NCBI RefSeq assembly: GCF_053078305.1
Contig: NZ_CP166879.1
Direction: 5' to 3' (one strand)
Length of the DNA stretch: 64,000 nt
The notes beneath the pieces are model-generated. The model made no database searches. It was not told the origin of the DNA and saw only the letters and a list, made by a program, of their open reading frames with translations. Both the position numbers and the translations under genes were made by a program. Position 1 is the stretch's first letter; each line of letters begins with the position of its first letter. Below are positions 18,086 to 19,508 of the stretch, piece by piece.

Positions 18086-19508
18086 CGGTGATTTAAGCAA
18101 CTGACTGGCTCTTTTTCGGGGCTGTGGGGTATTTCCAGGGCCTCTCCTTTACCACTCTCGGGAAGGCCCTTTCCCTTCTTGTCGGTAATTTCACAAGTTG
18201 TCCCATACTTGCAAGATCGCGCATCAGCTCCGGTATACGTCCCGGGGAAGCGCCCTGCAATGTCATCAGCATTCTCATCACCATTCCGCATGATTCTGAG
18301 AAACTCAGTTGATTCGGCCAGTAACCTTTCAGATGTTCCGCCATTTTAATCATCTGATATCTCACCAGATTATAAGCCAGTAAGACACCCCACAGCTCTT
18401 GCTCCACAAGCTCCGGCTTTTTACTTCTCAGCGTCAGCCTGCTCAGTTGCATCGTCTGTTTTATCTCCCTGTATCCCAGTTCGATTTCCCGGCGATGACA
18501 GTACAAATCCGCCATTTCTCCTCCGGGGAAGCGCATGGCGTCCGTCATCGACGTCAGCAGATGGCAGACTTTTCCTTTGCACGTCACGGTCAGCAGGCGG
18601 GCTGTCACCTCATTTCCCAGTCCCGGCCACTTTTTTCGTGCCTGTGGGCTGGTTTTCAGTTTCACCAGATGATCGCCTTTACCCGGTTTTCTGATCTCTT
18701 CATATTGCGCTCCCTTTCTGAGAGGGATCATCCAGTGGCGGTGTTCTCCCGCCAGGCTCCAGGCATTTAACAGTCCCAGTGAGTAATAACCTTTATCCAT
18801 TAACGTCAGAGTGTTATCGCCAGTTTGTTCTATAAGTTGCTCAGCAAGCTCATTTTCGCTGTTCTTCATCGTGCCGAAGGCTGCAGCCGTCAGCAGATGG
18901 CTGGTCAGTTCCATCTGGCAGACCATTTTGACCTGCGGGTAGAGCGCCGGGTTCCCGGCATGTGTCTGACGGGGGAAGGCTGCATCGTTTTCTGGTGTAT
19001 CCGGTGTGCGCCAGAACACACCATCGATGGCCAGCAGGGTCAGGCCGCACCAGTGCGGATGCGCGTGGCGTTATGCCAGAGCTGCGCTGTTTTCGTGAAC
19101 ACGCGGCGGACAGCCTCACTTCCCGGGCGCTGGCGGGCCTGAATAACGGCACTGGGGGCAACGAAGGGGCGATTGCCCGGCAGCATGATGTCCAGACGAT
19201 TCACAATCTGGTGAAGAGGTTCTTTACGCTCAAGCACCATGCCAACAATACACCAGACCATCATTTCGAGGGGAAGACGGCGCTTGCGTAGCGTTACAGT
19301 ACCTGATTCGGCAAGGCAACGAGAGATGAGTTCGGGGGCGAGGTAATCCCTCAGAGAAGTCTGTGGGTTACTCAGAGAATCGTAACGGGATACCAGATCA
19401 AGGGCCTGTCCAGTGTGCATAAAAAAATCCGGAAACGAGTGAGCGTTTCTGGATTCTTACACAGCCACTGGATCGGTCAACTGATCCTTAACTGATCGGC
19501 ATCACCTC
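18086..19508 (-). mobile_element. IS4 insertion sequence
   Basis: About 1.42 kb carrying one transposase frame recognisable as IS4 InsG; imperfect terminal inverted repeats (GGTGAT... at left, ...ACTGATCGGCATCACC at right). Confidence 0.75.
18093..19420 (-). pseudogene. IS4 transposase with a frameshift (apparent 1-bp deletion near 19030)
   Basis: N-terminal ORF 19420..19040 and C-terminal ORF 19019..18093 are both IS4-like; the other frame across the junction reads [22 protein letters not shown], which joins the two parts. Confidence 0.7.

Follow-up and report, generated by a model that had tools for sequence, protein, structure and literature searches.

The window analysed here, a 64,000-nucleotide stretch of contig NZ_CP166879.1 (NCBI RefSeq assembly GCF_053078305.1), carries on its minus strand, at 18080-19504, a decayed copy of the insertion sequence IS4. 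We hold with high confidence that this relic is a degenerate, non-autonomous derivative of IS4 (IS4 family, IS4 subgroup) and not a functional member. Judged from its sequence, it appears to be disabled in at least three ways: its transposase gene is frameshifted, its right end is defective and its catalytic motif carries missense changes.

An iso-form of IS4

Two reference copies of IS4, one from a K-12-type laboratory strain and one from CE10, both 1426 bp long, were aligned to the reverse complement of the window. The 1425 bp at 18080-19504 are colinear with this canonical E. coli element and gapless against it except for one missing base. Over the 1426 positions, 30 private substitutions and one deletion separate the relic from the K-12 and CE10 copies, giving 97.9% identity. 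Such identity with a known element over 1425 bp cannot be due to chance. By the iso-form convention of ISfinder (>95% nucleotide identity), the copy is near-identical to the type element at the iso-form level over its full length. The relic matches thousands of IS4 copies at 97-98%; these are carried by E. coli chromosomes and by Escherichia, Shigella and Salmonella plasmids. The best full-length matches reach ~97.6% among complete E. coli genomes and 98.0% among plasmids. A search of the 64-kb window for further IS4 copies found none.

The first-pass annotation had placed the element at 18086-19508. Its assignment to IS4 is retained here, while the boundaries are revised to those of the aligned element. 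Taking the scrambled 13 bp at the outer tip of the right inverted repeat as lost would limit the relic to 18093-19504. Both parts of an IS4-type transposase are encoded, with matches to the IS4 N-terminal domain (PF13006), to the DDE (RNase H-like) catalytic domain (PF01609) and to the family model NF033592.

A single missing base splits the transposase gene

The sole internal indel in the K-12 and CE10 alignments is the loss of one C from a CC dinucleotide at IS4 position 441/442. On the minus strand of the window this 1-nt deletion falls between 19063 and 19064, where the canonical CGCCACGCCGCATCC is replaced by CGCCACGCGCATCC. It lies at codon 119/120 of the 442-codon transposase gene and divides it into two open reading frames, both on the minus strand. 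ORF1 (19040-19420, 126 aa) is the N-terminal fragment. It comprises 119 native codons followed by seven out-of-frame codons and a TGA stop at 19042-19040, and it retains the native ATG, the upstream region and an intact Nterm_IS4 domain (PF13006, E 7e-31), covering NF033592 profile positions 2-95 of 332. ORF2 (18093-19019, 308 aa from a GTG start) is the C-terminal fragment and matches DDE_Tnp_1 (PF01609, E 7e-27); gene callers start it further downstream and report 277 aa.

When the missing base is put back, a 442-aa protein results that is matched over its full length by NF033592, the NCBIfam equivalog for the IS4 family transposase, with 284 bits against a cutoff of 115. The earlier reading of a transposase broken by a single-base deletion, with both halves present and otherwise full length, is thus upheld. 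Its location of the break near 19030 is not, the deletion lying ~33 nt away. The frames of ORF1 and ORF2 are both open only within the 28 nt at 19043-19070 on the minus strand, a zone bounded by a TAA at 19073-19071 in the ORF2 frame and by the TGA at 19042-19040 that ends ORF1, so the frame change must fall there. Position 19030 lies just outside this zone, past the stop of ORF1 but short of the first start codon of ORF2. Together with its bounding stop codons, the two-frame zone reads TAACGCCACGCGCATCCGCACTGGTGCGGCCTGA.

The split also appears to cost the catalytic fragment part of its active site. In the repaired protein, the DDE_Tnp_1 match begins at residue 126 and profile position 3, and in ORF2 alone it begins at profile position 13. 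A 10-residue segment of the repaired protein sits upstream of every ORF2 start codon, and we infer that it holds the first catalytic aspartate. Since ORF2 would lack this residue, neither fragment is expected to be an active transposase.

Two-ORF transposases that rely on frameshifting are common in other IS families. The split could accordingly be functional, with a programmed -1 ribosomal frameshift or transcriptional slippage joining ORF1 to ORF2 as in the IS1 and IS3 families, and a -1 shift inside 19043-19070 would indeed give back the native frame. However, these 28 nt contain no X XXY YYZ heptamer and no A/T run, and the slippery heptamer of IS1/IS3-type overlaps, which a downstream structure usually accompanies, is therefore absent from this one. 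The sole heptamer of this kind in ORF1, CCCGGGA at IS position 378, comes before the stop codon that bounds the ORF2 frame. In every E. coli record, the best match at this site keeps the extra base, in agreement with the annotation of those copies as single-ORF transposases. A transposase gene without frameshift is, moreover, named as a hallmark of the IS4 family (PMC2266710), from which the relic departs in having no single uninterrupted transposase ORF, its frame being split at 19063/64. We therefore give programmed frameshifting next to no probability and treat the split as a disabling mutation.

Independent assemblies share the deletion

A single-base indel is the commonest type of assembly error, and the remainder of the open reading frame is full length; on these grounds, the missing base could be a sequencing or assembly error in an active IS4, as the earlier annotation had allowed. 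The distribution of the allele contradicts this. The 126-aa truncated product is recorded, residue for residue, on 24 contigs. Nine places were fetched, namely NCBI assembly GCA_002487045.1 and eight Logan runs, and all nine show the same deletion at the same locus with the same flanks and align to the window without a gap. Seven match it at 100%, and the other two differ by 7 substitutions elsewhere, which shows that they are not copies of one assembly. The window sequence and its two variants make up three haplotypes.

One of the variant haplotypes, L005 (SRR13522402), keeps the frameshift and carries the canonical bases at 18246, 18491, 18500, 18506 and 18822. The other, L010, differs only within the adjoining DUF5339 gene. 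As three haplotypes share the deletion, and as it affects a CC dinucleotide and no homopolymer run, an assembly artefact is for practical purposes ruled out. The defective right inverted repeat, the altered left repeat and the missing target duplication, described below, likewise speak against an active element. That the missing base is an error in an intact IS4 thus has a negligible chance of being correct. For practical purposes, the deletion is a true, vertically inherited mutation and not an assembly artefact, as established by its presence in independent assemblies.

Beyond these carriers, the allele was sought more widely. An 81-nt query centred on the deletion site was run against E. 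coli records, and the deletion was present in the best match of none of the 2,567 records (4,852 places); in each record the best match had 98.8% identity, which corresponds to one gap. None of 5,426 complete E. coli genomes contained the relic allele, and an exact-pattern scan of 100,044 species-representative genomes for the frameshift allele gave no match.

The element ends and mobility

Members of the IS4 subgroup have ends of the form '-AATR--------WTW' and generate 10-13-bp direct repeats (PMC2266710). In the relic, each of the 18-bp inverted repeats breaks this pattern at one position. The left terminal inverted repeat (IRL; 19487-19504, minus strand) reads TGATGCCGATCAGTTAAG and matches the canonical TAATGCCGATCAGTTAAG at 17 of 18 positions. 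Its one change, A2->G at window position 19503, affects a conserved terminal base, and the end now reads TGATG.

The right terminal inverted repeat (IRR; 18080-18097, plus strand) is degenerate or truncated. Read inward as AAATTCCGGTGATTTAAG, it agrees with the canonical TAATGCCAGTCAGTTAAG at 13 of 18 positions; it begins AAATT, with T instead of R at position 5. The five mismatches, at 18080, 18084, 18087, 18090 and 18092, all fall in the outer 13 bp (18080-18092), a clustering that is improbable at the substitution rate of the rest of the element (binomial p = 1.3e-5). By a hand calculation, eight chance matches among 13 positions of the tip (p ~0.005) are far likelier than five independent substitutions, and the tip may therefore have been replaced, through an adjacent deletion or rearrangement, rather than mutated. 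In either case, the tip no longer provides a canonical IS4 end. The two repeats match each other at 12 of 18 positions in the relic and at 16 of 18 in K-12.

Perfect 12-bp target duplications flank both the K-12 and the CE10 reference copies. No 10-13-bp target-site duplication was found beside the relic, where the left flank CCCTCCTGAGAGG is unmatched by the right flank TCGTCAAATATTT. The variant IRR was also scanned for in 100,044 species-representative genomes and in viral contigs, with no match in either.

An IRR as degenerate as this is deemed unusable under the end recognition of the IS4 family and of Tn5. The relic is almost certainly unable to move, judging from its split gene and altered ends. 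The earlier annotation had called it probably immobile unless complemented in trans. The immobility stands, and the proviso is weakened by the 13/18 match of the IRR, the A2->G change in the IRL and the missing target duplication. By analogy with known end recognition, a supplied transposase would probably not find two usable ends, and rescue by an intact IS4 transposase provided in trans is for that reason unlikely.

Substitutions in the transposase fragments

The private coding substitutions number 22, of which half (11) are synonymous and half nonsynonymous (dN/dS ~0.31), a synonymous excess relative to a simple neutral expectation (binomial p = 0.006). Because of this excess, part of the divergence probably predates inactivation, which suggests a slightly divergent IS4 lineage as the source. 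The excess shows that not all divergence of the relic is post-inactivation decay. No unframeshifted ancestor or sister of this sub-lineage was found in the genomes, plasmids and metagenome contigs searched, and a 52-mer bearing four private N-terminal substitutions had no match in metagenome contigs. A PDB sequence search with the repaired protein returned nothing at E<=1.

The nonsynonymous changes include L99P, L246P, R281C, S308C and W311R. The Y-(2)-R-(3)-E-(6)-K signature of the IS4 family, as defined for region C1 (PMC2266710), is preserved in ORF2 as Y307, R310, E314 and K321. S308C and W311R affect non-signature residues inside this YREK motif. W311 presumably corresponds to the tryptophan that follows the motif arginine in Tn5 transposase.

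Haplotype L005 has the canonical residues at both the S308C and the W311R sites. Since it carries the frameshift without them, these two changes are separable from the frameshift and may have arisen by later decay, or been reversed by gene conversion. The L005 pattern fits decay after inactivation, and is explained just as simply by gene conversion from an active IS4. Three of the five canonical sites in L005 lie within 16 bp. This cluster suggests either a gene-conversion patch or stepwise decay.

A fragment of a disabled transposase could also have been co-opted, such that ORF1, or the N-terminally truncated ORF2 protein, inhibits or regulates other IS4 copies in trans. The Inh protein of Tn5 and InsA of IS1 are analogues of such a role. 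The native ATG, upstream region and intact Nterm_IS4 domain of ORF1 would be compatible with it, as would the persistence of the allele in several haplotypes. However, the private changes in ORF1 comprise seven nonsynonymous and two synonymous substitutions, L99P among the former, which is the opposite of purifying selection. The carriers are nearly identical strains, which makes persistence uninformative on selection, and the allele occurs in no other genome of the collections searched. ORF2, in turn, is expected to lack the first catalytic aspartate and has no obvious start context. Co-option of either fragment is thus very unlikely. Little credence can likewise be given to the specific proposal that ORF1, as a lone IS4 N-terminal DNA-binding domain retaining its own promoter and start codon, has been kept because it inhibits resident or newly arriving IS4 copies in a trans-dominant manner, and is thus a domesticated 'IS immunity' gene.

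The surrounding island

The genes on either side of the relic are a DUF5339 gene (17339-17617) and a DUF4376 tail-fibre-assembly-like gene (20281-21075). The interval between these two genes is short in E. coli JNEC-KY176, where it holds IS1414 in place of the relic. The IS locus with its arrangement is absent from the 5,426 complete E. coli genomes, and the flanks at 17665-18079 and 19505-19848 have no near match in the chromosomes of these genomes. The DUF5339-DUF4376 interval looks like a hot spot for insertion and rearrangement, and the neighbourhood as a whole is a typical island 'junkyard' of decayed mobile-element fragments.

Each flank of the relic contains a copy of a non-coding element. 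Copy A (17909-18058) is ~76% identical to positions 1039-1151 of NZ_CP046544.1, a small E. coli plasmid, next to 'protein rep'. Copy B (19563-19785) is ~73% identical to positions 652-879 of NZ_CP077544.1, a 3.9-kb plasmid, upstream of repL. Both matched plasmid stretches are unannotated and non-coding. The two copies are diverged direct copies of each other, with 69-72% mutual identity, and form a context that lies outside the IS. An Rfam scan of 16500-21500 returned nothing at E<=1. A cer/dif-like Xer core was sought by eye in the flank that holds copy A, where only the XerC-like half resembles the consensus.

Two further repeats were noted on the DUF4376 side. Upstream of the DUF4376 gene, a 32-nt direct repeat, AAxATxCxxACTTCCGGAAATCTGAAAAATTA, occupies 19868-19899 and 20140-20171 (88% identity). 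At 19929-19940, the IRL tip recurs exactly over 12 nt; this match was dismissed as chance, as the similarity does not extend beyond it.

Additional decayed remnants lie near the relic at 12621-14309 and 16394-16810. The remnants include an IS66 Orf2/TnpB-like ORF, a truncated IstB (IS21) ORF, beside which lies an ORF without any Pfam match, and the C-terminal fragment of a truncated sulfatase-family (phosphoethanolamine transferase-like) gene; an MFS transporter gene is also present on the DUF5339 side. The DUF4376 side is occupied by a contact-dependent inhibition (CDI) locus at 21756-34525. It encodes a 3164-aa CdiA (25031-34525, minus strand), after which come orphan fragments of toxin and immunity modules, namely a PT-VENN/DUF637 fragment, a CdiA helical domain, an EC869-like nuclease cdiA-CT and CdiI. 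At the start of the window, positions 1-12000 hold a pdu-like bacterial microcompartment operon that shares only ~76% identity with its pdu counterpart in E. coli, and for this reason it is likely to be a divergent, horizontally acquired version. Elsewhere, segments of the window share 98-99.7% identity with E. coli islands.

Discussion

The features of the relic can be accommodated in the following history. An IS4 copy would once have transposed or recombined into this site and then lost activity. The starting copy may have come from a slightly divergent IS4 lineage, given that half of the coding changes are synonymous. The inherited 1-nt deletion parts the N-terminal DNA-binding domain from the DDE domain, with the consequence that no full-length transposase can be made, and later drift may have added the missense changes in the catalytic motif. 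The right end may have been scrambled, or trimmed by a deletion or rearrangement next to it, and such an event would also explain the absent target duplication. The relic would now be inert DNA that occupies a single, fixed site within a genomic island of an E. coli-like genome. At most, it could recombine homologously with other IS4 copies or take part in gene conversion with them.

For annotation, these results imply that 18080-19504 should be described as a relic or pseudogene of IS4. Neither an active IS nor a pair of transposase genes should be entered there, and the frameshift should be left as it stands instead of being 'corrected' as if it were an error of assembly. The private allele, consisting of the deletion and the variant right end, could be used as a lineage marker for strains carrying the island. 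Beyond annotation, the significance of the relic is small.

Compared with IS4 of E. coli K-12 (insG; IS4 family, IS4 subgroup), the relic has the same Nterm_IS4/DDE_Tnp_1 architecture, the same YREK motif positions, the inner parts of both inverted repeats and a stop codon that overlaps the IRR. It differs in the 1-nt deletion at 441/442 that splits the gene, in the altered outer 13 bp of the IRR, in the A2->G change of the IRL, in having no 10-13-bp target duplication and in 11 private amino-acid changes, with S308C and W311R in the catalytic motif. The -1 frameshifting transposases of IS1 and IS3 share with it consecutive, overlapping ORFs, the DNA-binding part preceding the catalytic part in a -1 frame relation. 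In contrast to these systems, the relic has no slippery site, and its split stems from a private deletion in a single-ORF family.

The closest parallels are found among the IS pseudogenes and relics that are common in Escherichia and Shigella genomes. Like them, the relic is single-copy, fixed and frameshifted, with eroded ends, and it resides in an island rich in IS fragments. Apart from the absence of its allele from the 5,426 complete E. coli genomes and the species-representative genomes, it shows no notable difference from such relics, and an inherited IS4 pseudogene is an already known kind of feature.
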